Assembly: GCA_964580215.1 (NCBI GenBank)
Contig: CAZOJT010000009.1
Coordinates: 15,991-79,990, forward strand
Direction: 5' to 3'
DNA: 64,000 nt
Origin: an uncultured Ignavibacteria bacterium
GTDB lineage: Bacteria; Zixibacteria; MSB-5A5; SM1-73
The notes beneath the pieces were generated by a model, which was given only the letters and a program-made list of their open reading frames with translations, did no database searches and was not told the origin of the DNA. Of the stretch, positions 9,984-51,158 are shown one piece after another (positions within the stretch are counted from its first letter, which is position 1; every line of letters starts with the position of its first letter). A program made the translations under genes and the position numbers.

Positions 9984-10082
9984 GCGGATGGGTCAACGGA
10001 TTAAACGGATTGAACGGATGAGGTCAACGGATCGAGCGGATGGAACGGATAAGTCAACGGATGAAACGGATTGAACGGATGT
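9970..10082. repeat. tandem array of GGTCAACGGAT/TRARCGGAT units
   Basis: About 10 imperfect units, directly visible. The array starts inside the last codons of nuoB. Confidence 0.8.
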
Positions 10083-32087: not shown

Positions 32088-32208
32088 AAAGAGATACATG
32101 AGAAAAAAGAGACTTAGAGTTAAATCAAATGAATGACGGATTGATCGGGTGAGAATATCAATCAAAAAGATAACCGCCCATCTGGGCGACAAAAAGGGAG
32201 TGAGTAAG

Positions 32209-33660: not shown

Positions 33661-33941
33661 TGATTCCCTTGCTTTCCGGTGGTGTTCTTCACCAGGGAGA
33701 CAAACGGCGGGTGAGGAACACCCGCCTGAACAGGGGAGGGATAAGCAAACTTTTTACCATTTGTTGTTGCCCAATTTATTCGCAGTATCTTGAGATTGGG
33801 CTTTTCACAGGCTGGATCACCCTACCTTTGGCAGGGGATTTTCAATAAATCGAGCAACTACGGAGAAAAGGGATTCTTAAAAAAAGCTCAATATCAGTTT
33901 GAACATCACCAAAATTAAAAAAATGGAGTCTTGCTGGAAAT

Positions 33942-33968
33942 TTGACAATATGATGAGTGACATATAAT
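33942..33968 (+). promoter_or_regulatory. sigma70-like promoter (TTGACA-15nt-TATAAT)
   Basis: Consensus hexamers with a short spacer; no obvious CDS immediately downstream. Confidence 0.4.
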
Positions 33969-34116
33969 AGAATTTTTCACAACGGAAGGAAAGGGGTAGC
34001 CGCAGATCAATTGACTTCCTATGGATCCATATGGACAAATGAGCTTTAGTCTGCGAGGAAGGGATGCAATGTTTAGGAAATTCTCCAAGAGGGTGTGTCA
34101 AGTAAATTGTGTGAGA

Positions 34117-34234
34117 GTTCTGAAAAAGTCATTTTTGCGGGGCTGGGAGCCCCGCCTACGCGGGACTAAGTTATTTAATACCCAACCGCGTAGGACCCGC
34201 CTCGGGCAGGCCAAACCCTGGCATTTCTTCAGAG
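34117..34234. repeat. MITE-like element copy B (CTCTGAAAAAG...CTTTTTCAGAG family)
   Basis: About 85% identical to 5767-5889. Confidence 0.7.
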
Positions 34235-34272
34235 ATATCTGTGTAAATTTGTTTTTTTGAATGAGTAAACTG

Positions 34273-34300
34273 TTGACAAGTGGCGCAGTTAGGCTATATT
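34273..34300 (+). promoter_or_regulatory. sigma70-like promoter (TTGACA-16nt-TATATT) for the K-rich protein gene
   Basis: Hexamers lie ~85 nt upstream of the start. Confidence 0.4.
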
Positions 34301-34385
34301 AAATTAGCCATTCTAAATTATGGCTTAAGGTTTTCGGTTAACCGTGATATTGCTCAAAAAATATTACTGATGAGAGGTGAGAGAG

Positions 34386-34937
34386 ATGAAGAAGATTTTT
34401 GTCGTTTTTGTGTGTATCCTGACCACCGTGGCTTTTCTTTCTTCGGCTTCTGCCATCGACCGAAGTTCCAAAAGCAACAGTTCAGATACGAAAGAGAAGC
34501 CAACCAAGATTAAAGAGATCAAAGAAAAAAAGACCACCAAGGAAAAGGCTGGAACGGTTACCTCCTCAAAGGAGGGTGTCCAGAAAAGGGAAGACAAAGA
34601 CGCGGTTGCGCCCAAAGAATCATCAAAGAAAATCAAGGGGTGGTTTAAGACAAAAAAGAGCAAGGAGAAATATGATTATTTCATAGATAGAAACAATAAT
34701 GGCATTGATGATCGGTTAGAAAGGGACGTAAAGGCAAGAAGCATAAAAAAGCAAGAACCTCTTAAGAAGCAAGAGACCATTAAGAAGCGGCCTTCTGTCC
34801 CTGCAGAAAAAGCGCCGGCAAAAGTGAGCCCCTCCATCAAAACGCCGAAAAAAGTAAAGGAAACAAAGGTAAGCGAACAGAAAAAAGAGACAAAAGTAAA
34901 GAAGACTGAGAAGAAGAGAGAAGGAGACAAAAGATAA
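34386..34937 (+). CDS. secreted lysine/glutamate-rich low-complexity protein
   Basis: Signal peptide, then K/E/T-rich sequence. One EF-hand-like loop (DRNNNGIDDRLE). Confidence 0.55.
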   Translation: MKKIFVVFVCILTTVAFLSSASAIDRSSKSNSSDTKEKPTKIKEIKEKKTTKEKAGTVTSSKEGVQKREDKDAVAPKESSKKIKGWFKTKKSKEKYDYFIDRNNNGIDDRLERDVKARSIKKQEPLKKQETIKKRPSVPAEKAPAKVSPSIKTPKKVKETKVSEQKKETKVKKTEKKREGDKR

Positions 34938-34995
34938 TTTCTGGTTTATAAGACCTTAGCCAACATATCATCCAAATTGGTTAATAGAAGCAAAA

Positions 34996-35032
34996 GCCAG
35001 AACCTAACTTAAGTTAGGCTCTGGCTTTTTTT
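34996..35032 (+). terminator. rho-independent terminator
   Basis: gccagaacctaacttaagttaggctctggc stem followed by TTTTTTT. Confidence 0.65.
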
Positions 35033-35244
35033 GATGTGCTTTTCTGAAAAAACATGTTTTTAATCACTGCTTGGTGAGATATTATCATCCCCAGCCTTTC
35101 GGAACCCAAAAACAGACGAAATCTTTTGCCAGCAAAGGTTAAGAATCATAAATTTTCTCCCGATTAGTATTTTATGGATGAAAGTATGTGCATTAAGGGA
35201 GAGGTCTGTGTTTAGGGATTTAACCCTCAAGTTCATTTCTGAGC

Positions 35245-36447
35245 ATGAACGTTAAAACTAAAGAAGTGGGGCTTACCGGAAATCTGCGGACGGTTTCTTT
35301 ATCCGACCTGCTACAGTTGATCAGTGCGGCTGGAAAGACGGGAATGCTTCTGATCTCCCGGGATGACCAGAAAAGAGAGATATATTTCATGAAGGGAAAT
35401 ATCATCTACGCCTCCTCCTCGGGAAACGAAGATGAGCTTTTAGGAAATCTTGTTCTAAGGAGGAGGAAGATTCTCGAGCCAGATCTTAAGAGAGCTTTAA
35501 GCCTTCAGAAGCTGACCCGGAAAAGATTGGGCGCCATCCTCCTGGAGATGGGGGTTTTAACCAAAGAGGAGTTGATAGAATGCTTACAATATCAGATAGA
35601 GGAGATAATTTATAACCTGTTTGGCTGGAATTCAGGCGAGTTCATCTTTTACGAGGGGAGGTTGCCACCGGCAGACCAAATCACCACCCAGCTCAATACC
35701 ATGAACGTGATCATGGAGGGATCAAGGAGGATCGATGAATGGATACAAATCCAAAAAATTCTTCCGCCTGATGACGTGAAACTTCAGATGGTAAAAAATC
35801 CCAGGATAAAGTCGAGCACAGTGACCATGCCTGTAAATGACATACAGCTACTTCCCTTCATCGATGGAGAGAGAACCATCTCCGAGCTTTTGCAGGTAAG
35901 CCCTTTGAGCGAATTTTACACACGCAAGGCGTTATATAACCTGATCACTTCTGGCTTGGTTGAGGCAGGGGAGAAAAAAAAGATAAGAAAACAAGAGACG
36001 AACGGAGAGAAGCTCCTTTTGTATGTGATGATCAAACTATACTCTCAGTCCTATCAGACCATTGAGAAAATGGCCTCCCAAAAGTTGGGAGAGGGAGCCA
36101 AGAGGATTTTAAAGAGATGTTTTGACGCTCAAAAGTCTTTAAACCCTCTCTTGAGTAAACTGGAAAGCTCTGAGAATTTCTTAGACTTTCGCCATCTGGA
36201 AAACTCGGTAAATAAAATCCGTCAGCCCATCCGATTTCACAAGCTGATGGATGGATTAAATGATCTGCTTTTAGAATTCTTGAGATCTATCTCCAGAAGT
36301 TTGGGAAGAAACTTAACCAGGCAGGTTATCTCTCAGATCAAGAAGGAGACAGCCCAGGTGGTAGCTGAGCAGAGATGGATTGCAAAAGAGTATGAGTTGG
36401 AAGAAGAGCTTTTGAAAACTCTAAAGAAAAGCCAGCGATGTTTATAG
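35245..36447 (+). CDS. DUF4388 (PatA-N-like) domain protein with T2SSE_N/GspII-like helical repeat
   Basis: N-terminus LSDLLQLISAAGKTGMLLISRDDQKREIYFMKGNIIYASS resembles DUF4388. KRLGAILLEMGVLTKEELIECLQ resembles the PilB/GspE N-terminal domain motif. Confidence 0.65.
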   Translation: MNVKTKEVGLTGNLRTVSLSDLLQLISAAGKTGMLLISRDDQKREIYFMKGNIIYASSSGNEDELLGNLVLRRRKILEPDLKRALSLQKLTRKRLGAILLEMGVLTKEELIECLQYQIEEIIYNLFGWNSGEFIFYEGRLPPADQITTQLNTMNVIMEGSRRIDEWIQIQKILPPDDVKLQMVKNPRIKSSTVTMPVNDIQLLPFIDGERTISELLQVSPLSEFYTRKALYNLITSGLVEAGEKKKIRKQETNGEKLLLYVMIKLYSQSYQTIEKMASQKLGEGAKRILKRCFDAQKSLNPLLSKLESSENFLDFRHLENSVNKIRQPIRFHKLMDGLNDLLLEFLRSISRSLGRNLTRQVISQIKKETAQVVAEQRWIAKEYELEEELLKTLKKSQRCL

Positions 36448-36878
36448 AAAAACTTCATAAGTTCTTGAAAGGAAATATAAGTAGAAAACTAACCTGTGTT
36501 ATCAGCTTCTGGTTGGTATTTTTTTCTGCACAGGTCTCCTTCGCCTATGAAAGTGCCGATATTTTCCGGGCGGAGATTCGAGGCTCCGGCTCTTTATCGG
36601 TTCTTTCAGCACTTTTTGATATTTTGCTTCTGGTGGGGGCGTTTGCCTGTTTTCTTATCTCGGTGAGAGTTAAATCATTCTTAAAAGATGGGGAGCTGGC
36701 TTCCGGATGGACTCTTTTTTCGCTCTCCTTTGTCCTTTTGTTTGTGGCTCAGCTTCTTAGCTTTTCTTTAAGCGTTGGTCTTCTGAATATCTCCCCCAAC
36801 ATAATCTCCTCACTTCGTGTTTTGTTTATCCTTTTTTTAGCTTCTGGTATTTACTTTATGAAAAAAGTCCTGAGTTGA
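36438..36878 (+). CDS. small 4-TM membrane protein
   Basis: Overlaps the upstream stop by 10 nt (translational coupling); hydrophobic segments. Confidence 0.5.
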   Translation: MFIEKLHKFLKGNISRKLTCVISFWLVFFSAQVSFAYESADIFRAEIRGSGSLSVLSALFDILLLVGAFACFLISVRVKSFLKDGELASGWTLFSLSFVLLFVAQLLSFSLSVGLLNISPNIISSLRVLFILFLASGIYFMKKVLS

Positions 36879-37138
36879 TCTGACACCTTTAAGTTTATCA
36901 GTCTTATGAACTTTCGGATTTCTCTCAAGCCCAGAAAGTAAGGGGACTTAGCCCCATTTTTTCAACCACCAAAGTTAAGTAACCGAATTTGACTGTCGAT
37001 AAACCTATTAGTTAAATCTTAAGGGTCTTCGGATTTGTCTTAAAACATCTATCCCGGGGAATCGCATCTTTGTCGGAGGTGAATTTTTGTAGCATCTGTG
37101 GTTTAGGGGGGGAAGTGTAGCTTAAGCTGAGAGGATTT

Positions 37139-37987
37139 ATGCAGCCAACTGTACAGTTGGATGAAAGAATCTCCAAATGTGAGGAGATTTTAGCTCACAA
37201 TCCCGAATCCATGATTTTTGCGGCCCTATCGGATGCCTATCGTAAGAAGGGAGATTTGGCTAAAGCGTTTCATGCCTGCACTCGAGGTTTAAAGCTTCAT
37301 CCCGATTACGGTCCCGGACATCTGGTGATGGCAAAGATCAACATGGAAAGAGGAATGTATTCCGAGGCGGAAAAGGAGCTTGCTCTGGCGGTTCAGGCAG
37401 ATGGCAAAACCAGAGCCACCGAGCTTCTTCTGGCTCAGATTCTCATGAAGAAAGATCAAATAAAAGATGCCAAAAAGATCTTAGAAAAGCTCAAAGCCAC
37501 TGATCCGGAAAATGAGGTGGTGGGCGAGCTTCTGAAGTCTATAAAGCAAAAAGCGGATTTCGGCAGGATCCATGGGACCGACAAGCCGGGCTACGATGTG
37601 ATGACGGTGCAGGAACGCTGGCATATAGAGAAGGTGGTGGATCTTAAAGACGGGGTGCATTATTTGAAATCCCTGCCGGACGTATTGGGGGCGTTGGTGG
37701 TAGGAGAGGATGGATTGGTGCTGGAGAGCAGGCTAAACCCCAATTTTAAAAAAGAGCGAATCGGGGCAATCGCCACTTGCATCACCCAATGTGTGAAAGA
37801 TGGGGTAGGTGGGATAGGGTTTGGAGAATATGAACAGGTCTTGATAGAGACGGAAAACCTTGAGTTTTGGATAATGAAATTCAACAACCAAGCTTTTGTA
37901 TTGTGTTGTGCCCCAGAAGCCAATCTGGGAGCTTTAAAGATAAGAGTGGGTGAGCTTCTGGAACACCTCTCCAGAAACCTTGAATAA
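37139..37987 (+). CDS. TPR repeat + Roadblock/LC7 domain fusion protein
   Basis: N-terminal TPR-like helices. C-terminal LGALVVGEDGLVLESRL…FWIMKFNNQAFVLCCAPEANLGALKIRV is the Roadblock/LC7 pattern. Confidence 0.7.
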   Translation: MQPTVQLDERISKCEEILAHNPESMIFAALSDAYRKKGDLAKAFHACTRGLKLHPDYGPGHLVMAKINMERGMYSEAEKELALAVQADGKTRATELLLAQILMKKDQIKDAKKILEKLKATDPENEVVGELLKSIKQKADFGRIHGTDKPGYDVMTVQERWHIEKVVDLKDGVHYLKSLPDVLGALVVGEDGLVLESRLNPNFKKERIGAIATCITQCVKDGVGGIGFGEYEQVLIETENLEFWIMKFNNQAFVLCCAPEANLGALKIRVGELLEHLSRNLE

Positions 37988-37999
37988 GAGGGAGGTAAG

Positions 38000-38929
38000 G
38001 TGAATTCTGATTACAGAGGGGAGTTGAGAGGAGTTCTTTTGGTCTCCTTTTTTATCATGGTGGTTCCACTGATATTCTTCCCCAGGGATTTCGGGCTGAA
38101 ATTGGATTGGTCGCTCTTTTTGCTTTTCGCTTTTGAGTTGGGCTGGTATATGCTGATCCTGTTTGTCATGTTTTCCAAAGCATCAGCTCCAAAGGTGTTT
38201 CTATTTGGCCTGTTGACTCTGGGCTATCGAATTGGCTTGGGCATTGGATTTGGTATACTTCTTCTGGTTATGTTTCCTTTGTCTTTATCCTCCTCGCTTC
38301 AGTTGGGAATCTGTCAATATATGCCGGCTTTTCTTCTTCAAGCTTTGATGTCTCCATTTGTGCTCAAATCACTTTTTGAATCCTCTATGGGGAAAACAAA
38401 AAAAGCTGAAGAGACGCCAATGGAGTTTGAGCGAAGGGTTGCAGAACCCCTTCCTTCTTCTTTTACTCCTGAAATATCAAAAGAGAGGTTAGATGGCAGA
38501 AGATCAATTCCCTCACAAAAGGAGATTAAGGTGGCAGGAGAAGACAAATTAGAAAACATTTTGCACTACCTGAGAGAGTATGCCGGAGTGAAGGCGGCTA
38601 TTCTGGTGGATCAAGAGGGTTTGGTGGTGGCGAAAGATTCTTTATCCGATTATGATCCGGAGAAGGTTGCCTCCTTCGCTCGGTGCTTGAAGGAGACGAA
38701 TGACCAAATACTTCACAAGATGGGAGAGAAGACCTCGGAACGAATTGGAATTTATACCCCGGATATGTGGATATGCTTAAATCAGATAGAAGGCTTCACA
38801 TTGGTGGTGGTGTCCGATCGCCGCACGGATGAGTTGCTTTCGGTTCGAATATTACAGTCCACCGGAATGATAAAGAAAATTCTTTCCGAGAGGTACCAGC
38901 AAAATATCCTAAAAGTTGTGGAGGCATGA
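38000..38929 (+). CDS. membrane-anchored (4-TM) Roadblock/LC7 domain protein
   Basis: N-terminal TM helices. C-terminal AAILVDQEGLVVAKDS…FTLVVVSDRRTDELLSVRI is a Roadblock fold. Confidence 0.65.
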   Translation: MNSDYRGELRGVLLVSFFIMVVPLIFFPRDFGLKLDWSLFLLFAFELGWYMLILFVMFSKASAPKVFLFGLLTLGYRIGLGIGFGILLLVMFPLSLSSSLQLGICQYMPAFLLQALMSPFVLKSLFESSMGKTKKAEETPMEFERRVAEPLPSSFTPEISKERLDGRRSIPSQKEIKVAGEDKLENILHYLREYAGVKAAILVDQEGLVVAKDSLSDYDPEKVASFARCLKETNDQILHKMGEKTSERIGIYTPDMWICLNQIEGFTLVVVSDRRTDELLSVRILQSTGMIKKILSERYQQNILKVVEA

Positions 38930-39281
38930 TATGTATAAAATATTGGAAGAGCTGAACAAAACTACCGGGATCAACGGCAGCATGGTAGTAGGAGAGGACG
39001 GCATCGTGATCGCCGCTGATTTAAATACCCAGCTTCAAGACGAGGCAGTGGGGGCTTTGGCGGCTTCCATCGTCAGCACGGTCAAGAAGTCGATGGAACG
39101 CCTTTCCAATGAGGATTTAAAACAGATAACCGTGGAGGCCGGCAAAGGCAAGTTATTTTTTACCGAAGTGGGGATAGGCATCCTGGCGGTCACCACGGAT
39201 TCTCAGGTAAATGTGGGGCTGGTTCGGCTGGAGATAAAAAATGCGGCGGAAAAAATAAAGCTTGCCCGAAAGTCCGCCTGA
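38916..39281 (+). CDS. Roadblock/LC7 domain protein (MglB paralogue, MglC-like)
   Basis: 121 aa: INGSMVVGEDGIVIAADL…ILAVTTDSQVNVGLVRLEI. Overlaps the upstream gene by 14 nt. Confidence 0.7.
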   Translation: MWRHDMYKILEELNKTTGINGSMVVGEDGIVIAADLNTQLQDEAVGALAASIVSTVKKSMERLSNEDLKQITVEAGKGKLFFTEVGIGILAVTTDSQVNVGLVRLEIKNAAEKIKLARKSA

Positions 39282-39313
39282 GACAGTCTGAAGTTGCCAA
39301 ATGGAGACAAAAG

Positions 39314-40300
39314 ATGGCATCTATAAATTATGCCTTCAAGGAGATCTCGTGTAAGATAGTTTTCTACGGTCCCGGACTTTCCGGAAAAACCACCAACCTC
39401 CAATACGTTCATCAAAAGATCCCGCCTCAGACCAGAGGGAACTTGATCTCTTTAGCCACTGATCAGGACAGAACCCTTTATTTTGATTTTCTTCCAGTGG
39501 ACATCGGCAAGATACATGGGTTTTCCACCAAGTTTCAGCTTTACACCGTCCCCGGGCAGGTGTATTACAATGCTACCAGAAAGCTGGTCTTAAGAGGTGT
39601 GGATGGTTTGGTCTTCGTGGCAGACTCCCAAAAATCCAAAATGGATGAGAACATGGAAAGCTTTCAGAATCTGGTGGAAAATCTGTCAGAATACGGATAC
39701 GACATAGACAAGATTCCTTTAGTGTTTCAATATAACAAAAGAGACTTTCCTGACATCAGCTCGTTGGAGGAACTAGGGAAAGCATTAAACCCTGAGGGGC
39801 TTCCCTACTTTGAAGCGGTTGCCACCAAAGGGATAGGTGTATTTGATGTCCTGAAGTGTATCAGCAAATTGGTCTTGGATCAAGCCAAACGTAGACAACT
39901 CTTTCCGGAAAGGGAGATTGAAACCGAGGAGGTTGAAAAAGCGCCGGCTTTGCTGAGTCTCTCCCAGATGCCGCAAACTGAGCAAATGGCAGAAGCTTTG
40001 AACTCCTCAACCCCTGTTGAGAACTTGACCCAAGAGGCGGTAACCACCATCACCCAAAAGAAACCTGAGCCTCCAGCAGAGGAGATAACCCCAAAGCCAC
40101 AAGATACCCACAAAGAAACAAAACCCGAAATCGAGTTGGATATAGGAGAAATCGCCGAGAAAGAAAAGGTGAAGATGGATCAGATTCCCTCCAGGGAGAG
40201 CCCCACCATAATAAGCTGGTCAGCCGGAAAATCCGGCAAAAAGACCAAATCGAAAGGATTCTTTTTATGGCGCTTTGTGAATAAACTTTTCAATAGATAG
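39314..40300 (+). CDS. mglA: MglA-family Ras-like GTPase with ~130-aa C-terminal extension
   Basis: Residues 1-195 align to Myxococcus MglA at roughly 60-65% identity: P-loop GPGLSGKTT, switch I DRTLYFDF (Arg finger), TVPGQ (catalytic Gln), NKRD. The extension is an acidic/Pro-rich linker ending in the basic amphipathic tail KSGKKTKSKGFFLWRFVNKLFNR. Confidence 0.85.
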   Translation: MASINYAFKEISCKIVFYGPGLSGKTTNLQYVHQKIPPQTRGNLISLATDQDRTLYFDFLPVDIGKIHGFSTKFQLYTVPGQVYYNATRKLVLRGVDGLVFVADSQKSKMDENMESFQNLVENLSEYGYDIDKIPLVFQYNKRDFPDISSLEELGKALNPEGLPYFEAVATKGIGVFDVLKCISKLVLDQAKRRQLFPEREIETEEVEKAPALLSLSQMPQTEQMAEALNSSTPVENLTQEAVTTITQKKPEPPAEEITPKPQDTHKETKPEIELDIGEIAEKEKVKMDQIPSRESPTIISWSAGKSGKKTKSKGFFLWRFVNKLFNR

Positions 40301-40309
40301 AGCGGAGGT

Positions 40310-40822
40310 GTGAAATTGAGACAGGAGGATCTGGTAATCTATGAGGAGCAGATCGAAAAGATAGAGAAAGCTCTGAGCAGGTTAATCGAGGATGCACAAG
40401 CCAAGTGTGTGCTCCTGGTGGACAAGGATGGCCATTTGATCACTCGTCAGGGTTTCACTCAATCTTTGGATACCACTGCCCTGGCGGCGCTTTTAGCTGG
40501 AAGCTTTGCCTCCACCCGAGAGATTGCCCGTCTGGTGGGAGAGCCGGAGTTTTCCGTTCTTTTCCATCAGGGCAAGAAGGATCATATTCATATCACTCTG
40601 GTGGGGGAAAGGACCATTCTGGCGGTCGTCTTTGATGATCGAACCACCATCGGCATGGTTCGGCTTTATGCTAAAGAGGCTACTGAAAATCTGGGAAAGG
40701 TTTTCTCTTCTGCCAACCGTCAGGACCGCCAAACTGAAGAGGAGAAGAAAACCGACTTAGATTCAGAGTTTTCGACTTCTTTAGAAAACAGGCTGGATGA
40801 TATCTTTTCTGAGCAATCCTGA
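40310..40822 (+). CDS. mglB: MglB (Roadblock/LC7 GAP of MglA)
   Basis: Aligns along its full length with M. xanthus MglB (VLLVDKDGHLI…DTTALAAL…GMVRLYAKEA…DDIFSE). Confidence 0.8.
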   Translation: MKLRQEDLVIYEEQIEKIEKALSRLIEDAQAKCVLLVDKDGHLITRQGFTQSLDTTALAALLAGSFASTREIARLVGEPEFSVLFHQGKKDHIHITLVGERTILAVVFDDRTTIGMVRLYAKEATENLGKVFSSANRQDRQTEEEKKTDLDSEFSTSLENRLDDIFSEQS

Positions 40823-40969
40823 TGGAGGATATCTCAAAAGTCCGAGAAAGGGAAGTTTTCAAAAGTGTATCATCGGGTTGAGCAGAGAAAGTGTGAACAC
40901 ATCTGAGAAACAACAAAATGAGCAGTCTCATCATATAGAGTGACCTTAAGTGAGATTCTGAGTTTTTAG

Positions 40970-42670
40970 GTGAAAGTTATGTCAAGCGAATTAGGAGAAA
41001 TGCTGGTTAAGGCAGGCAAGATATCGGGGGAACAGCTTACCCAGGCTTTGGACTTACAAAAAACCAACAAGGAGAAGTTAGGGGATATTCTGATTAAGAC
41101 GGGAGCCCTCTCCAGTGAGGAGGATCTCTCAGAATTTATCGGTAGGCAGTTAAATATTGGCGCTTTGAGGCTATCTGATATCGAGTTGAATCCAGAGGTG
41201 GTGAAGATGATTCCCCCAGACATTGCCAGAAAGTTCAACGTCATGGCCGTCGGCAAGCTGGGCAAGACTTTGATAGTAGCTATTTCGGATCCTAATAACA
41301 TTTACGTTTTAGACGCCATAAAGTTTATCACTGGATGCGCGGTTCAGCCGGTTATCAGCCCGGAGAAAGCCATCCAGAAGGCGATAGATACCTATTATCG
41401 GGATGCCGCAGGAATCGACCAGATACTTAAGGGACTGAAAGAAGGGGACCTGGAGGTGATTGAGGAGAGCGATGAGGTTCCCACCGAGCAGGACCTAATA
41501 TCCCAGGTGCAGGATAAACCTTTAGTCAAGCTGGTGGATTCCATCATCGGCGATGCCATCCGAAGAGGTTGTTCGGACATTCACATAGAAACCTATGAAA
41601 AAAGAATAAGGGTCAGATCCAGATTGGATGGAAATTTGCAAGAGATGTCTCCCCTACCTTTCAAATATCGTGCCGCTATCGTTTCCAGGATAAAGATAAT
41701 GGCGGATTTAGACATCTCTGAGAGAAGATTGCCTCAGGATGGCAGGATAAAGGTGAAGTTCGGTGATCGGGCAGTGGATCTAAGAGTATCCGTTCTTCCC
41801 ACCATATTTGGGGAGAAGGTGGTGATGCGAATTCTGGATCCGGGGAGCGTTAACGTCGATTTAACAAAATTAGGTTTCCCGCAACACTCTCTTAAGAAGT
41901 TCGAAAAAACCATCCACCTTCCCTACGGCATGATCCTGGTGACTGGTCCCACCGGAAGTGGGAAAACCACCACCCTCTATTCTGCCTTAAAACAGATTAA
42001 CACCACGGATATCAATATAATGACCGCCGAAGATCCGGTGGAGTTCAATTTCGAGGGAATAAATCAGGTGGCGGTGAAAAGCGAGATCGGACTGACCTTT
42101 GCCGCTTCTTTAAGGTCGTTTTTGAGGCAGGACCCGGACGTAATCATGGTAGGAGAGATCAGGGATACCGAGACCGCAGAGATCGCGGTGAGAGCCGCCT
42201 TAACCGGACATTTGGTCTTCTCCACCCTGCATACCAACGATGCTCCCAGCACCATCGACCGGTTGATCGATATGGACATTCCCAACTACCTGGTGGCTTC
42301 CTGTGTCAGGTTGATCATGGCTCAAAGGATGGTGCGCAAGATCTGCCCTAATTGTAAACACCAGGTTCAAATTCCCTCAGAGACCCTCCAGATGCTGGGA
42401 CTTGTTGACAACGAAATCAAAGGTCTCAAAGTTTATGAAGGGAAGGGTTGTTCGGAATGCAATAATACCGGCTATTCAGGAAGAACCGGTATTTTTGAGG
42501 TGATGCCCATGACTCCTGCAATTGAAAGGATGATAGTTTCCAGAGCCTCCAGCGCGGAGATAAGGCAACAGGCTATAACCGAGGGCATGCTCACTTTAAG
42601 AGTTGCCGCTTTGGATAAGTTAAAGCAAGGCGTTACCACTGTAGAAGAGGTTTTAGCAGTAACTGCTTGA
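40970..42670 (+). CDS. pilB: type IV pilus assembly ATPase PilB
   Basis: T2SSE_N domain, Walker A GPTGSGKTT, Asp box, tetracysteine motif CPNC…CSEC. Confidence 0.9.
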   Translation: MKVMSSELGEMLVKAGKISGEQLTQALDLQKTNKEKLGDILIKTGALSSEEDLSEFIGRQLNIGALRLSDIELNPEVVKMIPPDIARKFNVMAVGKLGKTLIVAISDPNNIYVLDAIKFITGCAVQPVISPEKAIQKAIDTYYRDAAGIDQILKGLKEGDLEVIEESDEVPTEQDLISQVQDKPLVKLVDSIIGDAIRRGCSDIHIETYEKRIRVRSRLDGNLQEMSPLPFKYRAAIVSRIKIMADLDISERRLPQDGRIKVKFGDRAVDLRVSVLPTIFGEKVVMRILDPGSVNVDLTKLGFPQHSLKKFEKTIHLPYGMILVTGPTGSGKTTTLYSALKQINTTDINIMTAEDPVEFNFEGINQVAVKSEIGLTFAASLRSFLRQDPDVIMVGEIRDTETAEIAVRAALTGHLVFSTLHTNDAPSTIDRLIDMDIPNYLVASCVRLIMAQRMVRKICPNCKHQVQIPSETLQMLGLVDNEIKGLKVYEGKGCSECNNTGYSGRTGIFEVMPMTPAIERMIVSRASSAEIRQQAITEGMLTLRVAALDKLKQGVTTVEEVLAVTA

Positions 42671-42801
42671 CCATATCAAAAGAGTTAAAAGGACATGGAG
42701 GGAAACAAAAGGCCGGTTTAAGAATCAAATTCCCAAGTCGATAATATATAAGGGAACTTTTTACCTTAAGATCTGGGATAAAGAAAAAACAGGAGCAAAA
42801 G

Positions 42802-43896
42802 ATGGTCACCTTACGGGAACTCTTGGAATTAATCGTGAAGAAGAATGCCTCCGACCTTCATTTAACTGTGGGTTCGCCACCCCGGTTGAGAATAGATGGA
42901 AAGCTGGTCAAAACCGATTTTGATATTTTAACCGCAGAGGGGACCAAAAAGCTGGCTTACAGCATAATGAATGAGAAGCAGAGGCAGAAATTTGAGGAGA
43001 AAAGCGAACTTGACCTTTCCTTTGGGATTGAAAACTTGAGCAGATTCAGGTGTAACGTTTTTATGCAGAGGGGGAATGTGGCGGTAGCTATAAGACAGAT
43101 CCCTTTCCGCATCCCCAGTTTCGAGGAGTTAGGCATACCCAAGGTGGTAGCCGAGTTGGCTGAGTTGCCCCGGGGTTTGGTGCTGATAACCGGACCCACC
43201 GGAAGCGGAAAATCCACCAGCTTAGCCGCCCTGATCAATAAGGTAAACCAGGAAAGATACTGTCACATCCTGACGGTGGAGGATCCCATCGAGTATCTTC
43301 ATCGGCACAATTGTTCACTGATCAACCAGAGGGAGGTTTATGCCGATACCCAGTCCTTTGCCAGTGCTTTAAAATACGCCCTAAGAGAGGATCCGGATGT
43401 GGTTTTAGTGGGAGAGATGAGAGATTTAGAAACCATGGAAGCCACCTTAAACATCTCCGAGACCGGACATTTAGCCTTTGCCACACTGCATACCAACTCC
43501 TGTGCCGAGTCGATTAACAGAATCATCGACGTGTTTCCCAGCAATCAGCAGGAGCAGGTTCGGGTTACCGTCTCCTTCGTTTTGCAGGCGGTGATAAGCC
43601 AGCAGTTGATCCCCCAAATAGGAGGAGGGAGGGTGTTGGCTTTGGAGATCATGATCTGCACACCGGCCATCAGGGCATTAATCCGGGATGATAAGATTCA
43701 TCAGATCTATAGCCTGATGCAGGCGGGACAGAAGTATGGCATGAGGACTATGAATCAATCTTTAGCCGAGCTTTATCTGAAACATAAAATCACCCTGGGT
43801 GACGCTATGGGAAGAAGCTCAAATGTGCAGGAGCTGAATGAGCTTTTAGCTAGAAAATCTGAGATAAGCCGGCAACGGCGTACAGCTGGAGTATAA
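42802..43896 (+). CDS. pilT: twitching motility retraction ATPase PilT
   Basis: N-terminal ASDLHLTVGSPPRLRIDG, Walker A GPTGSGKST, AIRALIRD motif. Confidence 0.9.
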   Translation: MVTLRELLELIVKKNASDLHLTVGSPPRLRIDGKLVKTDFDILTAEGTKKLAYSIMNEKQRQKFEEKSELDLSFGIENLSRFRCNVFMQRGNVAVAIRQIPFRIPSFEELGIPKVVAELAELPRGLVLITGPTGSGKSTSLAALINKVNQERYCHILTVEDPIEYLHRHNCSLINQREVYADTQSFASALKYALREDPDVVLVGEMRDLETMEATLNISETGHLAFATLHTNSCAESINRIIDVFPSNQQEQVRVTVSFVLQAVISQQLIPQIGGGRVLALEIMICTPAIRALIRDDKIHQIYSLMQAGQKYGMRTMNQSLAELYLKHKITLGDAMGRSSNVQELNELLARKSEISRQRRTAGV

Positions 43897-44040
43897 TTCG
43901 CAGGAGTGAAATTAAGGAAAACTCAAAACAAAAGCATAACTTTTCAGATAGCGCAGACATTTACTCTAAGAAGCCTGATTAGGCTCTTGTGGAGAGAATC
44001 GGGCTTTAGGGGTGACAGTTTCTGAGGGAAGGAGGTTAAA

Positions 44041-45240
44041 TTGCCAGTTTTCACCTATAAGGGAAGGACATTAGGGGGAACTCAAGTTACAGGTGAGTTG
44101 AAGGTAAAAAACCGGGCTGAGTTGGAAAGGATCCTGCGGAGCAAAAAGGTTTTAGTGTCTCAGGTCTCCACCAAGCCTTCTCAGATAAGCATAAGAATCG
44201 GCACCGGAATAAAGAAGGTGCATATCTCCCGATTCACCCGGCAATTCGCCACCATGATCGGAGCCGGACTCCCCATGGTCCAATGTCTGGAGATATTATC
44301 CCAGCAGATGGAATCAGCAGAACTGAGAAGGGTCGTCGGCGAGATAAAGGAAAGCGTGCAGGCAGGTACCACCTTGTCAGAAGCCTTAGCCCGACACAAA
44401 AAGGTCTTTGATGATCTTTATGTTAATATGGTGGACGCGGGTGAGATCGGAGGAGCTTTAGACACCATTCTGGTTCGACTGGCCATTTACCGGGAAAAGG
44501 CAGATGCTCTGGTGCGTAAGGTAAAAGGAGCCTTAATCTATCCGGCGGTGGTGATGACCGTAGCTATCGGAGTCACCTTCATCATGTTGACTTACATAGT
44601 TCCCGTCTTTGCCAAGATGTTTTCCGGTCTGGGCGCGGAGTTACCTGCCCCCACTCAGTTCATTCTGTCTTTGAGTGCATTCATCCGAGGCAATATCTTA
44701 ACCGGAGTAGTTCTGTTGGTCCTTTTGATCATCGCATATAAATTTTATTCAAGGACCGATAAAGGCAGATACAATATTGATTACCTGAAGTTGCGAATTC
44801 CGCTTATTGGGGATTTGATAAGGAAGAGTTCCATCGCAAGATTTTCGCGCACACTGGGAACCTTGATCTCCTCAGGAGTTTCCATTCTGGATGCGCTGGA
44901 CATCACCGCCCGCGCATCGGGCAATCGGGTGATACATGATGCCATAAAAAAATCGGTTCTCTCCATCGCAGAAGGAGAAACCATAACCCAGCCTTTGAAG
45001 CAGTGTGGAGTCTTTCCTCCCATGGTTACCCAGATGATCTCAGTGGGAGAAAAAACCGGAGGGCTGGATGAGATGCTTTCCAAGATTGCCGACTTCTATG
45101 ATGAGGAGGTGGACGCCGCCGTGGCGGCTTTAACCTCCGTCATTGAGCCGGTGATCATAGTTTTCATGGGAGTGGTGATCGGAGGAATCTTGATAGCCAT
45201 GTACCTCCCTATGTTCGATATTATTGGAAAGATAAGCTAA
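44041..45240 (+). CDS. pilC: type IV pilus platform protein PilC (GspF family)
   Basis: Two T2SF repeats; 3 TM. Confidence 0.85.
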   Translation: MPVFTYKGRTLGGTQVTGELKVKNRAELERILRSKKVLVSQVSTKPSQISIRIGTGIKKVHISRFTRQFATMIGAGLPMVQCLEILSQQMESAELRRVVGEIKESVQAGTTLSEALARHKKVFDDLYVNMVDAGEIGGALDTILVRLAIYREKADALVRKVKGALIYPAVVMTVAIGVTFIMLTYIVPVFAKMFSGLGAELPAPTQFILSLSAFIRGNILTGVVLLVLLIIAYKFYSRTDKGRYNIDYLKLRIPLIGDLIRKSSIARFSRTLGTLISSGVSILDALDITARASGNRVIHDAIKKSVLSIAEGETITQPLKQCGVFPPMVTQMISVGEKTGGLDEMLSKIADFYDEEVDAAVAALTSVIEPVIIVFMGVVIGGILIAMYLPMFDIIGKIS

Positions 45241-45296
45241 ATTATATCCAACAAGTTTGACTGAAGCGGAGAGATAAGATTTAGAATTGTTCATGC

Positions 45297-45331
45297 ACCA
45301 CTGTGCTTTTTGGCAGTGGTGTAAATTTTTA
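45297..45331 (+). terminator. hairpin caccactg…cagtggtg followed by T-rich tract
   Basis: 8-bp stem downstream of pilC. Confidence 0.45.
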
Positions 45332-45727
45332 AGCCTTTCCTTGGTTTTAAAATCTAAGATTATAGAGCTTACAACTTTTATTGAGTTACGCGTGAGCAAT
45401 GGAAAATCTTTCTTTTCTCCTTTAATCCCCCTTTGGTATGAACCATATGGTTCATACCTTTGTCCCCCTTTATAAAAGGGGGATTGAGGGGGATTATAAA
45501 AAAGAGGAGATTGTGGTCGATGAAAAATTTTTCCGTTACTTATACGGAGATCAGTAATTACAAAGTCAAGTGAGCTTAATAAGGCAATCGATCAGAACCG
45601 TACGTTACTGCCATTTCGTCCATGAAAAGAAAAAGTAAGGCGAAAAAAACATTACAGTTTTGCTTTCTGATAAGACGCAACCTTATGAGTGAGTCGGTAT
45701 TTTAAAGAAAAGCCCAAATCAGGTTAG

Positions 45728-47497
45728 ATGCAGATGGATGTGAACAAATCAGAACTCTCTTATTCTAAAATCCCCTGGCTTCTTTTGTCACGCCTCTCCA
45801 TATTTATTCTGTTGTTGATAATTGTGGTTCTCTTTTTCCATGTGCCGGATTTTCTGGTGCTGCCCTTCACCATTTACTCTTTTGTAACCCTATCTCTTCT
45901 TTTGCTCATTGCGTTCGACCAGAGACGAACTCAAAAGCTACTATTTAATGCCGTAGTGATTTTGCAACTCATCTTGGAGATTGTAGTCGAGACCGGGGTG
46001 GTTTATCATACCGGTGGCATAGACAGTCCCTTCGCCATTCTTTTTATTTTGACCATCCTCTCCGCCAGCCTGATTTATCGATTGATCGGAAGTGTGCTTT
46101 TGGCTGGTTTATCCAGCCTGGCTTATGTTTCTATTCTCTGGTTTGAGGGAGGATTGGAATTTTCCTTCAAAAGCCTACTTTTGATTAGCGATGCCTCATT
46201 TTATGAGGCTTTTCTTTACATCTGCACCTTCTTTCTGGTGGCTTTTATAAGTGGCTATCTATCGGAAAAATTGAAAGTGAAAAGGGAAGAGTTGTGGAGT
46301 GCTTCTCTGGAGTTAAGCAAGATTAAAACGGATACGGACGATATACTAAGGCATCTGAAAAGCGGTCTGATAACCGTCGACACCTGGGGAAGAATCGTTT
46401 ATTTTAACCGGGCGGCAGAGGAGATACTGGGATATTCTGAAGTGGAGGTGAAAGGGAAAGATTGCCGGGACGTGTTCAAGCAAAGAATGCCCCAACTGGC
46501 GGAAAAAATATTTCAACCGATAAAATTCAACCAGGAGGATTCGAGGGGTCTCCTGCATATCGAAGGTAAAAACAACCGAAAGATTCCCATCGGGATAAGC
46601 ACATCCATTCTGAGAGATAGAGAAAAGGGAGCGAGGGGAGTGATCGCCATATTTCAAGATATCACCGAGGTGATGAAATTGGAGGAAAGACTCAGGATGG
46701 CCGACAGATTGGCCGCAGTGGGTGAACTCTCAGCCGGGATCGCTCATGAGATACGGAATCCTTTAGCCTCCATCTCCGGGTCGGTGGAAGTTTTAAAGGG
46801 GGAGCTTTCCTTGGCCGAGGAGGATCGAAGACTTTTGGATTTGATTATCAAAGAGAGCGGAAGGCTGAATCGGATTCTGACAGATTTCTTAGAATATGCT
46901 CGTATCGGTCCTTCGATGTTGAGCAAGGTGGAGTTAGTCCGTATTTTAGATGATGTTATAGAGATCGCTAAGAAGCATCCGTCTTTTGAAGAAAATATCT
47001 CAATAAAGAAAATCTTCTCTTCAGATGTCCGATATGTTTTAGGTGAAGAGAATCAGATAAAGCAGATATTTCTAAACCTTTTAGTAAATGCCATGGAATC
47101 AATGGAAGTCAGGTGGGGAGAGATATTGATAACTGACCGGACCTTAAATCAATTAGATCAATTTTACTTTACCCAGGAGGAGCCGGAGGAATCGGAATGG
47201 ATTGCTGTTGCCATCGCTGATCAAGGAAAAGGAATGACCGAGGAACAGAAGGAAAAAGTTTTTTCGCCATTTTATTCCACCAAAAAGAATGGCACCGGTC
47301 TGGGACTGTCGATAGTGCAGAGATTGATAAACAATCTGGGTGGAAGAATAGAATTTCGCAGTCAGCCGGGCAAAGGCTCTGTATTTGTACTTTATCTACA
47401 GAAATATGTGAAAAGGAAAGCCAGGTTATCTCAAACGGTTCACATCGCAAATTTAGCAGACTTAGATGTTTGCACTCCAGAACTTCGGCAAACATAA
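45728..47497 (+). CDS. membrane sensor histidine kinase (PilS/NtrB-like; 6-TM, PAS, HisKA, HATPase_c)
   Basis: H-box AGIAHEIRNPLASI; G boxes GTGLGLSIV and GKGSVF; PAS-like segment. Confidence 0.8.
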   Translation: MQMDVNKSELSYSKIPWLLLSRLSIFILLLIIVVLFFHVPDFLVLPFTIYSFVTLSLLLLIAFDQRRTQKLLFNAVVILQLILEIVVETGVVYHTGGIDSPFAILFILTILSASLIYRLIGSVLLAGLSSLAYVSILWFEGGLEFSFKSLLLISDASFYEAFLYICTFFLVAFISGYLSEKLKVKREELWSASLELSKIKTDTDDILRHLKSGLITVDTWGRIVYFNRAAEEILGYSEVEVKGKDCRDVFKQRMPQLAEKIFQPIKFNQEDSRGLLHIEGKNNRKIPIGISTSILRDREKGARGVIAIFQDITEVMKLEERLRMADRLAAVGELSAGIAHEIRNPLASISGSVEVLKGELSLAEEDRRLLDLIIKESGRLNRILTDFLEYARIGPSMLSKVELVRILDDVIEIAKKHPSFEENISIKKIFSSDVRYVLGEENQIKQIFLNLLVNAMESMEVRWGEILITDRTLNQLDQFYFTQEEPEESEWIAVAIADQGKGMTEEQKEKVFSPFYSTKKNGTGLGLSIVQRLINNLGGRIEFRSQPGKGSVFVLYLQKYVKRKARLSQTVHIANLADLDVCTPELRQT

Positions 47498-47615
47498 ATG
47501 CCTGCACTTCAAATTTCTTAGAAAACTACTTTTTGAAAGACGATGTAAATCCAGTTTGACAAAGAAACAATGGTGGTCCTCCGCCTGCTGCGATCCCAGA
47601 TGATCGAAACTCATA

Positions 47616-47645
47616 GCCGCCCACTTCAGGGCGGTTATTTTTTTC
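47616..47645 (+). terminator. rho-independent terminator
   Basis: gccgccc…gggcggt stem followed by TATTTTTTT. Confidence 0.5.
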
Positions 47646-47756
47646 AGATTCTGCTTGGAAATTGGCAAAATCCGGTTATATTAAATTAGAGAACACGGAA
47701 AACTCTAAATATAACTCAGGCGTTTTATGGCAATTCCGATTTTTGGGAAAATAACC

Positions 47757-48698
47757 ATGAAAAAGTTTTTGATTCTCTGCTCATTGATTTTTACCCTGTT
47801 TATCTCAAATCCCCTACAAGCAAGAATCATCCACGTGCCTGCTGATTTCTCCACCATTCAGGCGGGCATCAACGGTGCAGTCGATGGCGATACGGTCTTG
47901 GTGGCAAGAGGACATTACTACGAAAGGATAAATTTTGCCGGTACTGCCATCTTAGTTGCCAGCAATTTTATTTTTGATAATGACACAACCACCATCGATT
48001 CCACTGTCATTGACGGTGAAAATACTGGTACTGTAGTCGTATTTCCGGGATCAGCCTCAACTCTTCAAGGATTCACTATCACTAACGGATATTCAACGGA
48101 GGGTGAAAGAACCTACGGCTGGTCTGGTAAGTCTATAATTACCAACAATATCATGACTGGCGACTATGCCAATTACGCGGATGCCGAAATTCACCGTGAG
48201 GATGGCCCACCTGTGATAACGAACAATATTATCATTGGTAACGATGGTGATGGAATCTACTGTAAAGGTTACGTGCCGAAAATCACCAAGAATACCACAT
48301 CAAACAACTTCACTGCCCCTGGCGGAGGAATCTCCTGCTGGTCCGTTACCCCCACAATCAAACATAATGTCGTAACAAATAACTCTGGTAATGGTATCTA
48401 CTGCGAAACATCTTCACCTACAATTGACAGCAACAATGTAATTAACAATGGTGGTAGTGGAATCCGTTGCGAGGAGTTCTCCTCGCCCACCATCGGTAGT
48501 AATGCTATTCTCAGCAACTCATTTGGTGGGATCTATTGCAGGGAATATTCGTCGCCTACCATCATCAACAATACTATAATCGATAACTCTACCGAAATTG
48601 AGCGTGGTGGAATCTTCTGCCAGTGGGGTTCCTCTTTAAAGACACTTAGTCATTTATTTTGGACCATTTGTGTCTGTCATTTAAATATAACAAATTAA
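47757..48698 (+). pseudogene. right-handed parallel beta-helix (PbH1) repeat protein, apparently 3'-truncated
   Basis: Signal peptide, then ~6 PbH1 repeats (NNIIIGNDGDGIYC, NNSGNGIYCE, NNGGSGIRCE). The ORF ends in non-homologous residues and is followed by ~430 bp of repeat-rich non-coding DNA. No C-terminal sorting domain is present. Confidence 0.45.
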
Positions 48699-49074
48699 TA
48701 AAATCCAATCAAGAAATTTATCACATTTGTAGAGACCAAATACAAATCATACACTTTTTGAGAAAAAGATTAGGCAACACCCAAGAGAGAAGATATGCGT
48801 ATGCATTCATACGAATCTTTCCCTCCTCTGGAGTCTCTTTTTTCTCAATTAGATTAAACTCCTCCGGGGGGAGATGTCCATTGTTTTTTTATCTCATCCC
48901 GCCAAAGGCGGGACTCCTCTGCCCTCAATCTTTGACCTCCATCTTTTCCACCCCGCCTGTCAATCTTGGCGGACAGGCAATCCGCTACCTCCTTTTTTCC
49001 ATTTCTTCCATAAACCAACAGGTCAGTTGACTCAAATGAGGGGATACCATCTCCCTTCCTTTTCCCACAAATTC

Positions 49075-51031: not shown

Positions 51032-51158
51032 GAGCATGATAGCCATTTTTCGGTTTGCTCGCTTGGAGGATTCCCACCTTATTGCTTGACTTTTTTGTAT
51101 CTTGGGGTTAATTTATATGGAGCGATTGGTTTAAGTAATTAAATAGGAGGATTCCAAA

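Follow-up and report, generated by a model that had tools for sequence, protein, structure and literature searches.

A recurring Zixibacterial gene block that joins a long MglA, MglB, Roadblock and PATAN proteins to pilB, pilT, pilC and pilS

How could a small GTPase act on the motor of type IV pili, and what does a locus that encodes both suggest about the route? This question is raised by eleven genes at positions 35245-47497 of a 64-kb window, by which we mean the whole stretch of DNA analysed here (64,000 nt of contig CAZOJT010000009.1, deposited under the name of an uncultured Ignavibacteria bacterium). In this block mglA and mglB stand together with genes for a PATAN protein, a small membrane protein and three further Roadblock proteins, and are followed by the pilus motor genes pilB, pilT and pilC and by pilS. 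The block is of a known kind, an MglA/MglB switch tied to type IV pili, and the association of PATAN with Roadblock proteins is known as well. What sets it apart from the described systems is the phylum-wide joining to pilB-pilT-pilC-pilS, a long MglA with an apparent anchor, the fusion of TPR and Roadblock domains, and an integral-membrane Roadblock protein. The reading that we favour, and regard as moderately probable, is that MglA, tethered to the membrane and switched by MglB, controls PilB, PilT and PilC with Roadblock and PATAN proteins as adaptors.

Gene products and recurrence of the block

All eleven open reading frames (ORFs) were found on the + strand, as reported in a preliminary description of this DNA. 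The families given here were assigned by profile searches of each ORF, which agreed with every gene identity that the description had named.

35245-36447, + strand: PATAN (DUF4388/PatA_N) protein, 400 amino acids (aa)
36438-36878, + strand: small conserved membrane protein, 146 aa, no family
37139-37987, + strand: TPR-Roadblock fusion, 282 aa
38000-38929, + strand: membrane-anchored Roadblock protein (4TM-Roadblock; TM, transmembrane), 309 aa
38931-39281, + strand: stand-alone short Roadblock protein, 116 aa from the ATG at 38931 (mechanical ORF from 38916)
39314-40300, + strand: long MglA, 328 aa
40310-40822, + strand: MglB, 168-170 aa
40970-42670, + strand: PilB, likely true start at ATG 40979
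42802-43896, + strand: PilT (TIGR01420)
44041-45240, + strand: PilC, two T2SSF domains
45728-47497, + strand: PilS-type sensor histidine kinase (6TM_PilS, PAS, HisKA, HATPase_c)

Two details of that description needed correction. The genes had been called tightly spaced, and the spacing is mixed: some genes overlap or lie 9-32 nt apart, whereas others are separated by 260, 147, 131, 144 and 487 nt. Four Roadblock proteins had been counted besides MglB, and there are four in total, MglB and three others.

The product of 39314-40300 aligned without gaps to M. xanthus MglA (PDB 6h17; E 6e-79), with 117 of 193 residues identical. This 60.6% lies within the 60-65% expected earlier. The P-loop GxxxxGK[ST] is present as GPGLSGKTT (aa 19-27), and the catalytic residues R53, T54, T78 and Q82 are kept relative to the M. 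xanthus protein. The intrinsic arginine finger D52-R53-T54 is conserved, and is invariant in alignments of MglA homologues. The G3 motif reads L76-Y-T78-V-P-G-Q82 and contains the TVPGQ feature of group-1 MglA defined in PMC4316618. From its arginine finger, catalytic Gln and TVPGQ motif we assign the protein as a bona fide group-1 MglA, with a catalytic site that is intact in sequence.

MglB matched Robl_LC7 (E 6e-15), T. thermophilus MglB (E 1.5e-17) and, over aa 7-168 with the C-terminal segment included, M. xanthus MglB (6izw_B; E 9e-38). By these matches the product of 40310-40822 is identified as MglB, the predicted Roadblock GTPase-activating protein (GAP) of MglA. The Thermus-type equivalog model NF052242 gave 93.6 bits (E 1.3e-26), below its cutoff of 200, and therefore this MglB does not belong to the narrow Thermus-type subtype.

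The motor genes were similarly clear. PilB matched T2SSE (E 1e-139) and TIGR02538 (722.5 bits, cutoff 675.65), and PilT matched TIGR01420 (489.2 bits, cutoff 319.1). PilC has its two T2SSF domains (E 5.5e-65) and scored 487 and 424 bits with PilC models, under their equivalog cutoffs of 700. The profile matches thus designate PilB as the type IVa pilus extension ATPase, PilT as the retraction ATPase and PilC as the inner-membrane platform protein. The start of PilB at ATG 40979 was suggested by the N-termini of orthologues. Its N-terminal region (aa 8-60) carries an MshEN motif for cyclic di-GMP (c-di-GMP), with predicted binding (NF053729, 53.8 bits, cutoff 38). The kinase has the complete PilS-type architecture (6TM_PilS, PAS, HisKA, HATPase). 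A gene for the response regulator PilR, which would complete a PilS-PilR pair, was not found 3' of pilS in the window; a beta-helix protein, BNR-repeat proteins and an ATP synthase operon follow there.

Roadblock folds had been proposed for 37139-39281, and they were recovered for all three products by profile search, with 29.1, 25.7 and 53.1 bits against the Robl_LC7 cutoff of 23, and by hhalign. In the fusion protein (29.1 bits, and a TPR_19 match), TPR helices at aa 4-144 are followed by a disordered linker (aa 142-157) and a Roadblock domain (aa 169-281). An alignment of this C-terminal domain from 15 orthologues matched the short Roadblock protein with 99.2% hhalign probability and MglB with 95.2%. 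An alignment of five full-length sequences, dominated by the TPR half, had matched nothing in MglB and was set aside. The AlphaFold2 (AF2) model of the fusion protein (pLDDT, the predicted confidence, 86.8) shows TPR helices, the disordered linker and an alpha-beta-beta-alpha-beta-beta-beta-alpha domain. The top Foldseek matches of the model were an Asgard Roadblock protein (target-normalised TM-score 0.85), M. xanthus MglB and LAMTOR2.

The membrane-anchored protein (25.7 bits) has about four TM helices in aa 9-104, conserved in orthologues. A variable linker then leads to the Roadblock domain (about aa 181-300), which hhalign matched to MglB with 84.5% probability (E 7e-6, 122 columns). The short protein, which gene callers give as 116 aa, was the clearest of the three (Robl_LC7 E 2.7e-14, 53.1 bits; hhalign to MglB 95.9%), and its best PDB matches were Asgard Roadblock proteins, CvnB and MglB. 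The Roadblock domains of the window also matched LAMTOR2 in sequence-profile and fold searches. We conclude from profiles and predicted fold that the three extra paralogues belong to the Roadblock/LC7 superfamily. The PDB was also searched by sequence, with the short protein and the TPR-Roadblock profile as queries, and at E <= 1 no chain named MglC came up, the presence of MglC in that copy of the PDB being unchecked.

In the 35245-36447 protein the DUF4388 profile matched aa 11-166 (E 1e-34). No receiver domain was found in it by profile searches, and it is therefore assigned as a PATAN protein and not as a PatA-type response regulator. The PATAN domain contains an MshEN-like four-helix insertion (aa 65-120, nt 35437-35604). 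There the MshE-type c-di-GMP motif NF053729 matched aa 66-117 (43.6 bits, cutoff 38), and aa 65-120 aligned with MshE residues 9-64 (PDB 5htl, E 0.003). The second 24-residue MshEN motif is canonical, and the first lacks its leading Arg and central Gly. A relaxed MshEN regular expression (PMC5013675) matched the window protein (position 94) and almost no orthologues or PilB N-termini. Binding of c-di-GMP by the PATAN protein is uncertain. Its C-terminal half is helical and without a characterised family.

The 36438-36878 protein has four hydrophobic segments, read as a signal-peptide-like N-terminus and three TM helices, and a conserved LKGGELSxxW loop. Profile searches placed it in no known family, and related loci have an orthologue at the same position.

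We surveyed 80 species-level GTDB loci from a scan with an MglA alignment, the best by similarity to the query (a survey and not a census), and located orthologous genes in loci by tblastn and with custom hidden Markov models built from orthologues. The block was carried by 11 of these 80 loci. It recurs in the same gene order in at least 15 other loci (L004-L017 and L050), from independent samples and genomes, and every contig of sufficient length has the eleven genes in identical order. Among the carriers are the closed 2.56-Mb Zixibacteria genome CP070839.1 (L004) and metagenomic contigs whose MglA is only 55-70% identical, and the block was also seen where the same population had been assembled independently, from JGI and Logan samples. 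Identity of the accessory proteins falls to 20-40% among these loci, and the flanking genes vary from one locus to another (aldehyde dehydrogenase, ZapA/RNase Y, ComEC, dockerin, ATP synthase). The earlier concern that the arrangement might be unique to this contig, or a misassembly, is refuted by this recurrence in independent loci with differing flanks. Genes flanking the block in the window (the upstream 186-aa protein, DUF4384/PEGA, beta-helix and BNR genes) were considered as members and rejected, because only the closest relative, L004, shares the 186-aa protein. The gene pilS follows pilC in most related loci and is absent in L004.

A few of these loci showed irregular genes. At L004:14658-17475 PilC was called short (316-360 aa) and a 588-aa TPR protein is in the place of pilS. 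The PATAN gene is split into ORFs of 81 and 292 aa at L005:6247-7417, and pilB into ORFs of 149 and 445 aa at L016:11758-13448. These irregularities may reflect frameshifts or errors in sequencing.

Among the listed matches, every named close homologue of MglA or the TPR-Roadblock protein is from candidate division Zixibacteria. Five of the metagenome-assembled genomes (MAGs) with the block are labelled Ignavibacteria (L011, L012, L015, L016, L050) and one Terriglobales (L009, DATKKH010000158.1). In a tree of MglB, Roadblock and MglA sequences these MAGs interleave with those labelled Zixibacteria. Ignavibacteria were considered as a second host phylum and rejected on this mixing of labels and on the absence of Ignavibacterium and Melioribacter from the 2014 MglA table (PMC4316618). 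The tree suggests that the public labels of all six are wrong or the contigs mis-binned, and the Terriglobales contig is probably mis-binned. We treat the module as Zixibacterial and those labels as doubtful. The expectation of a host that bears a type IX secretion system (T9SS) and is not a myxobacterium was correct: it is one of the Zixibacteria (FCB group), with a T9SS-sorted protein at 270-2138. The window holds a complex I operon, the ATP synthase operon and a T9SS-sorted peptidase, and therefore appears to be ordinary chromosome. In the open-access literature searched we found nothing on MglA in Zixibacteria.

Elsewhere the two sets of genes are mostly apart. About 68 of the best 80 loci have mglB-mglA without pilB, pilT or pilC within 10 kb. 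They span Myxococcota (Cystobacter, Sorangium), Bdellovibrio-like bacteria, Desulfuromonadota, Nitrospirota, Acidobacteriota, Gemmatimonadota, Planctomycetota and Fibrobacterota, and in some of these phyla PATAN and extra Roadblock genes are also near mglBA. This agrees with the earlier statement that mglBA does not adjoin pil genes in myxobacteria and Bdellovibrio, for the loci of those kinds in our sample, which was without Thermus.

A different arrangement was seen at L066:8905-19484, in an unrelated high-GC MAG ('uncultured bacterium SRP068000_co4_104'). There a tight co-directional cluster encodes MglA (202 aa), PATAN (238 aa), PilM, PilN, PilO, a 222-aa protein at the PilP position, the PilQ secretin, PilB, PilT and PilC. 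No mglB was detected in this cluster, and a PASTA Ser/Thr kinase lies upstream. Because this is an independent second architecture, it suggests that the linkage of MglA/PATAN and pilus genes arose at least twice, in differing arrangements.

Two contigs labelled Longimicrobium or Gemmatimonadota (L059:1-4659 and L060:1-5584) have PATAN, TPR-Roadblock-like, Roadblock, MglB and ~208-aa MglA genes together, with mglB before mglA. Both are too short to reach any downstream pil genes.

The long MglA and its C-terminal tail

The MglA of the window has 328 aa, against about 195 aa for the canonical single-domain protein. Its G domain (aa 1-193, nt 39314-39892) is followed by a linker (aa 194-294) and a tail (aa 295-328, nt 40196-40297), whose end, KGFFLWRFVNKLFNR (nt 40253-40297), is a putative membrane-targeting helix, basic and amphipathic. 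The gene precedes mglB, with a gap of 9 nt. In alignments of homologues the G domain is invariant, the Pro/Glu/Thr-rich linker is very variable in length and sequence, and the tail is conserved, with the consensus ESPTIISWSA..KK..KGFFLWRxxKKLxNR. The C-terminal extension (135 aa in the window protein) is conserved in all close homologues, which are 267-476 aa long, and the basic and hydrophobic tail is kept in 120 of the 120 closest homologue clusters (267-404 aa). The segment LWRFVNKLFNR has the highest 11-residue helical hydrophobic moment in the window protein (0.85).

The tails of more distant loci with the block (KKRGFFKRLFGLK, KKQGFFKRLFGIK and KKKKGFFLFRLFGKK, and NKPGFLKRLFGNK in L013) include GFFKRLFG and GFLKRLFG. 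The latter, from L013, is identical to the core of the membrane-targeting sequence of E. coli MinD, KGFLKRLFGG (PMC5471200). From this we infer that the tail is a MinD-type amphipathic membrane anchor. Like MinD and FtsA, the protein would have an NTPase domain and then a short basic amphipathic C-terminal helix. However, it is unrelated to MinD outside the tail, and the MinD tail comes directly after the ATPase domain without a linker of >= 100 aa. The order of G domain, variable linker and basic membrane anchor is analogous to that of eukaryotic Ras, Rho and Rab proteins, whose C-termini differ in having a lipidation motif, absent from the window tail. We found no paper discussing a membrane anchor on MglA in the open-access literature searched.

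Long MglA homologues were also seen in other phyla. Those of Fibrobacterota/Chitinivibrionales (L022, L024, L026, L031) have 292-461 aa; mglA comes before mglB there, and PATAN is encoded upstream. The tail in L024 is MinD-like (KRKGFFAWLFGKR); others, such as that of Fibrobacter sp. in L031, are not. The F. succinogenes protein is listed in the 2014 table (PMC4316618) with 313 aa and the order mglA then mglB, without comment on its length. In Planctomycetota (L043, L056, L057, L071, L074; at about position 10001 in each locus, 7017 in L056) the homologues have 321-345 aa and a hydrophobic, TM-like C-terminal helix, e.g. LVLMIAVGAVIVGTIGFLVLNYL. Upstream of these, a giant PATAN protein (1050-1380 aa) is encoded together with a short Roadblock protein and one that is TPR-like (about 365 aa); mglB is downstream, and pil genes are not nearby.

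In a neighbour-joining tree of G domains (without support values) the long MglAs of Zixibacteria, Fibrobacterota, Planctomycetota and one Sumerlaeota stand apart from the forms of 192-198 aa. In all of these mglA comes before mglB, and in most PATAN is encoded upstream. Perhaps the long MglA is a distinct subfamily of bacterial Ras-like GTPases, in which a hypervariable linker connects the G domain to a membrane anchor at the C-terminus, and which in Zixibacteria switches the pilus motor directly from a Ragulator-like Roadblock scaffold and a PATAN adaptor. For Zixibacteria and part of the Fibrobacterota the anchor would be a MinD-like amphipathic helix; the Planctomycetota would have a TM helix as tail anchor. 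We offer this proposal, anchor types included, tentatively, and lean towards doubting it. If true, it would provide a minimal and compact route from MglA to PilB/PilC that could be reconstituted to show how MglA-GTP activates pili. Membrane tethering of Rab GTPases by a C-terminal extension has been proposed to arise during eukaryogenesis (PMC10933270), and bacterial amphipathic-helix or TM anchors on Ras-family GTPases would show the same design arising independently.

Proposed action on the pilus motor

In the reading that we favour, MglA would be held at the cytoplasmic membrane by its basic amphipathic C-terminal helix on a flexible linker, and would cycle between GTP and GDP under the control of MglB, which would switch it off. 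Roadblock domains generally dimerise, and the TPR-, TM- and free Roadblock proteins might dimerise among themselves, giving MglA a scaffold or co-regulator attached to the membrane. Myxococcus MglC/RomY, or Ragulator in the case of the Rag GTPases, would be comparable. MglA-GTP would act on PilB/PilC through the TPR and/or PATAN adaptors, and this would determine the place or time at which PilC is engaged by PilB (extension) and not by PilT (retraction). A probable entry point for c-di-GMP is the MshEN motif of PilB, and the PATAN insertion may be another. As to output, the data favour neither pole selection nor on/off gating.

Several parts of this proposal have precedents. The TPR proteins SgmX and Bd2492 are known effectors of MglA. 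In M. xanthus, MglA-GTP stimulates the formation of type IV pili via SgmX (PMC7519303, PMC7668184). A PATAN domain of Synechocystis binds PilB1 and the N-terminal domain of PilC and is membrane-localised (10.1101/2021.06.11.447907), and PATAN proteins were among the candidate regulators of type IVa pili considered with SopA in a study of SgmX in M. xanthus (PMC11580455). The linkage of PATAN and MglB/MglA genes is itself already known (Makarova 2006, as cited in PMC4316618), and the 2014 survey by Wuichet and Sogaard-Andersen (PMC4316618) described group-1 MglA neighbourhoods that 'vary widely', with occasional PATAN genes. Those neighbourhoods are like the present one in bringing PATAN, Roadblock/MglB and MglA genes together; they differ in that pil genes, TPR- or TM-Roadblock proteins and a C-terminal extension are not mentioned there, and Zixibacteria were outside the 2014 genome set.

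The closest described system is the MglA/MglB module of M. xanthus, with MglC, RomR/RomX, RomY and SgmX. Both have a group-1 MglA with arginine finger, TVPGQ and catalytic Gln, an MglB assigned as Roadblock GAP, one or more extra Roadblock paralogues, an associated TPR protein, and type IVa pili as the (here presumed) target. In the window, however, mglA comes before mglB, MglA has its linker and putative membrane-targeting tail, the TPR is fused to a Roadblock domain and one Roadblock protein is integral to the membrane. In addition the window has PATAN in the block, which is contiguous with pilB-pilT-pilC-pilS, whereas mglBA stands alone in the sampled Myxococcota. The cyanobacterial PATAN-REC regulators (PixG, PixE) are similar in linking a PATAN protein to PilB/PilC, and the Synechocystis PATAN redirects pilus activity. 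The window protein differs from them in lacking a receiver, in its MshEN-like insertion and in being paired with a small GTPase instead of a chemotaxis-like phosphorelay. Ragulator-Rag (LAMTOR) offers an architectural analogy, several Roadblock proteins and a membrane anchor serving a small GTPase, although MglA has no Roadblock domain of its own and the kinship is limited to the shared fold.

Because the presumed players are encoded beside the motor genes throughout the phylum, the block gives a short list of candidates for reconstitution: the GTPase, its GAP, three Roadblock partners, the TPR module, the PATAN adaptor and the c-di-GMP-binding motifs. To our knowledge, activation of type IV pili by MglA-GTP in M. 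xanthus has been traced only to SgmX and polar recruitment factors.

The same genes might instead serve as a front-rear polarity oscillator like that of M. xanthus, picking the pole with active pili and switching it from pole to pole. The M. xanthus MglA and MglB, to which the window proteins are closely homologous, catalytic residues included, have exactly this role (PMC2910265, PMC2907295), and extra Roadblock paralogues such as MglC belong to the M. xanthus polarity network (PMC4719450). But RomR/RomX, Frz-type chemosensory genes and an MglC-specific match were not seen in the window, and an MglA tethered on a flexible linker differs from the soluble, pole-hopping protein of 195 aa. Spatial and temporal control look alike in sequence. 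The polarity explanation is an analogy with M. xanthus, and we consider it unlikely, if a serious candidate. We give much less weight to the explanation that the genes are neighbours without functional coupling, the block serving gliding or T9SS-linked motility, division or envelope biogenesis and its adjacency to pilBTC being an inherited accident. Reduced blocks (PATAN, TPR/Roadblock, long MglA, MglB) do occur without pil genes in Planctomycetota, Fibrobacterota and Longimicrobium-like MAGs, the gaps 5' of pilB, pilT and pilC are large enough for promoters, and gliding is among the other processes that MglA controls in M. xanthus. Against this, the adjacency is kept where accessory identity is down to 20-40% and both flanks have been reshuffled, the unrelated L066 lineage independently heads a pilMNOPQ-pilBTC cluster with MglA-PATAN, and PATAN and TPR proteins have documented links to PilB/PilC and to MglA, respectively. 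That a chimeric contig simply joined a GTPase block to pil genes is hardly credible, given the JGI and Logan assemblies, CP070839.1, the 11 species-level GTDB genomes and a GC content that is even over the region.

Control of the motor by a tethered MglA/MglB switch is thus the explanation we prefer, and a number of observations weigh against it. Since pilA, pilMNOPQ and pilR were not found in the window, the module is not the self-contained unit that the preliminary description suggested. No ORF of the window has a pilin-like N-terminus. Homologues of RomR, RomX, RomY and SgmX were not identified in the window either, and matches to MglC, RomR, RomX and RomY were sought within the window only. 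An AF2 model of full-length MglA (49 homologues) had a pLDDT of 43, with the G domain also poor, and gave no structural support for the tail helix. In most PATAN orthologues the MshEN-like motif is degenerate, with the leading Arg absent and the Gly of motif 2 often lost. Co-transcription of the block is made less certain by the hairpin between pilC and pilS (listed below) and by the gaps of 130-490 bp. Finally, frequencies from a similarity-ranked sample of 80 loci are rough, and Zixibacteria are uncultured.

Transcription signals and other genes in the window

Three hairpins of terminator type were found around or within the block.

34992-35035, + strand: intrinsic terminator, 17-bp stem and U7 run (z = -3.45, fold of 34938-35087)
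45294-45323, + strand: terminator-like hairpin after pilC, 11-bp stem (z = -2.26), tail AAAUUUUUAAG, weak U-tract
47613-47645, + strand: intrinsic terminator, 10-bp stem with 6 GC pairs and U7 run (z = -2.86)

The first ends the upstream gene and sets the 5' boundary of the module, and the last, after pilS, sets its 3' boundary. The hairpin after pilC may be an internal transcript end, and pilS may be transcribed separately. There is also a small GC hairpin with a U6 run within the 260-nt gap 5' of the TPR-Roadblock gene. The mglB-pilB, pilB-pilT and pilT-pilC intergenic regions had no significant RNA structure (z = 0.94, 0.34 and -1.51), and no Rfam family was found at 34000-49000. These signals and spacings would fit from one to four transcripts, the single unit of the preliminary description being one of these possibilities. 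A scan for sigma-70 promoters found 15, compared with 17.9 expected from shuffled sequence, and no promoters were called from it; promoters of the FCB group differ from the sigma-70 consensus that was scanned.

Upstream of the module, two lysine-rich proteins are encoded at 32149-34937. The DUF4384/PEGA protein has 503 aa, and its C-terminal half is very basic and of low complexity. The second is the 186-aa protein mentioned above; it is Lys/Glu-rich with a signal-like N-terminus, and of the two only this one is common to L004.

Downstream of pilS, the ORF at 47727-48698 encodes a right-handed beta-helix (NosD-like) protein whose hydrophobic tail is unusual, and a 123-aa ORF of a different frame (48659-49030) overlaps it. 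The beta-helix gene (47727-49030) may be frameshifted or truncated, having lost a C-terminal domain, perhaps of T9SS type. It is followed at 49160-53033 by two adjacent proteins of about 623 aa that consist almost wholly of Ycf48/BNR-like repeats (PSII_BNR, 8 and 12 stretches), with a highly regular repeat unit, 'FTDANTGWAVG..GTILHTTDGGSNWN'.

Farther from the block, a 1405-aa fusion of two BcrAD_BadFG ATPase and two DUF2229 domains (CoA-enzyme-activase type) is encoded on the - strand at 24760-28977. The protein at 6741-8480 combines cohesin and type I dockerin domains, and a dockerin protein is also found upstream of the module in L006.

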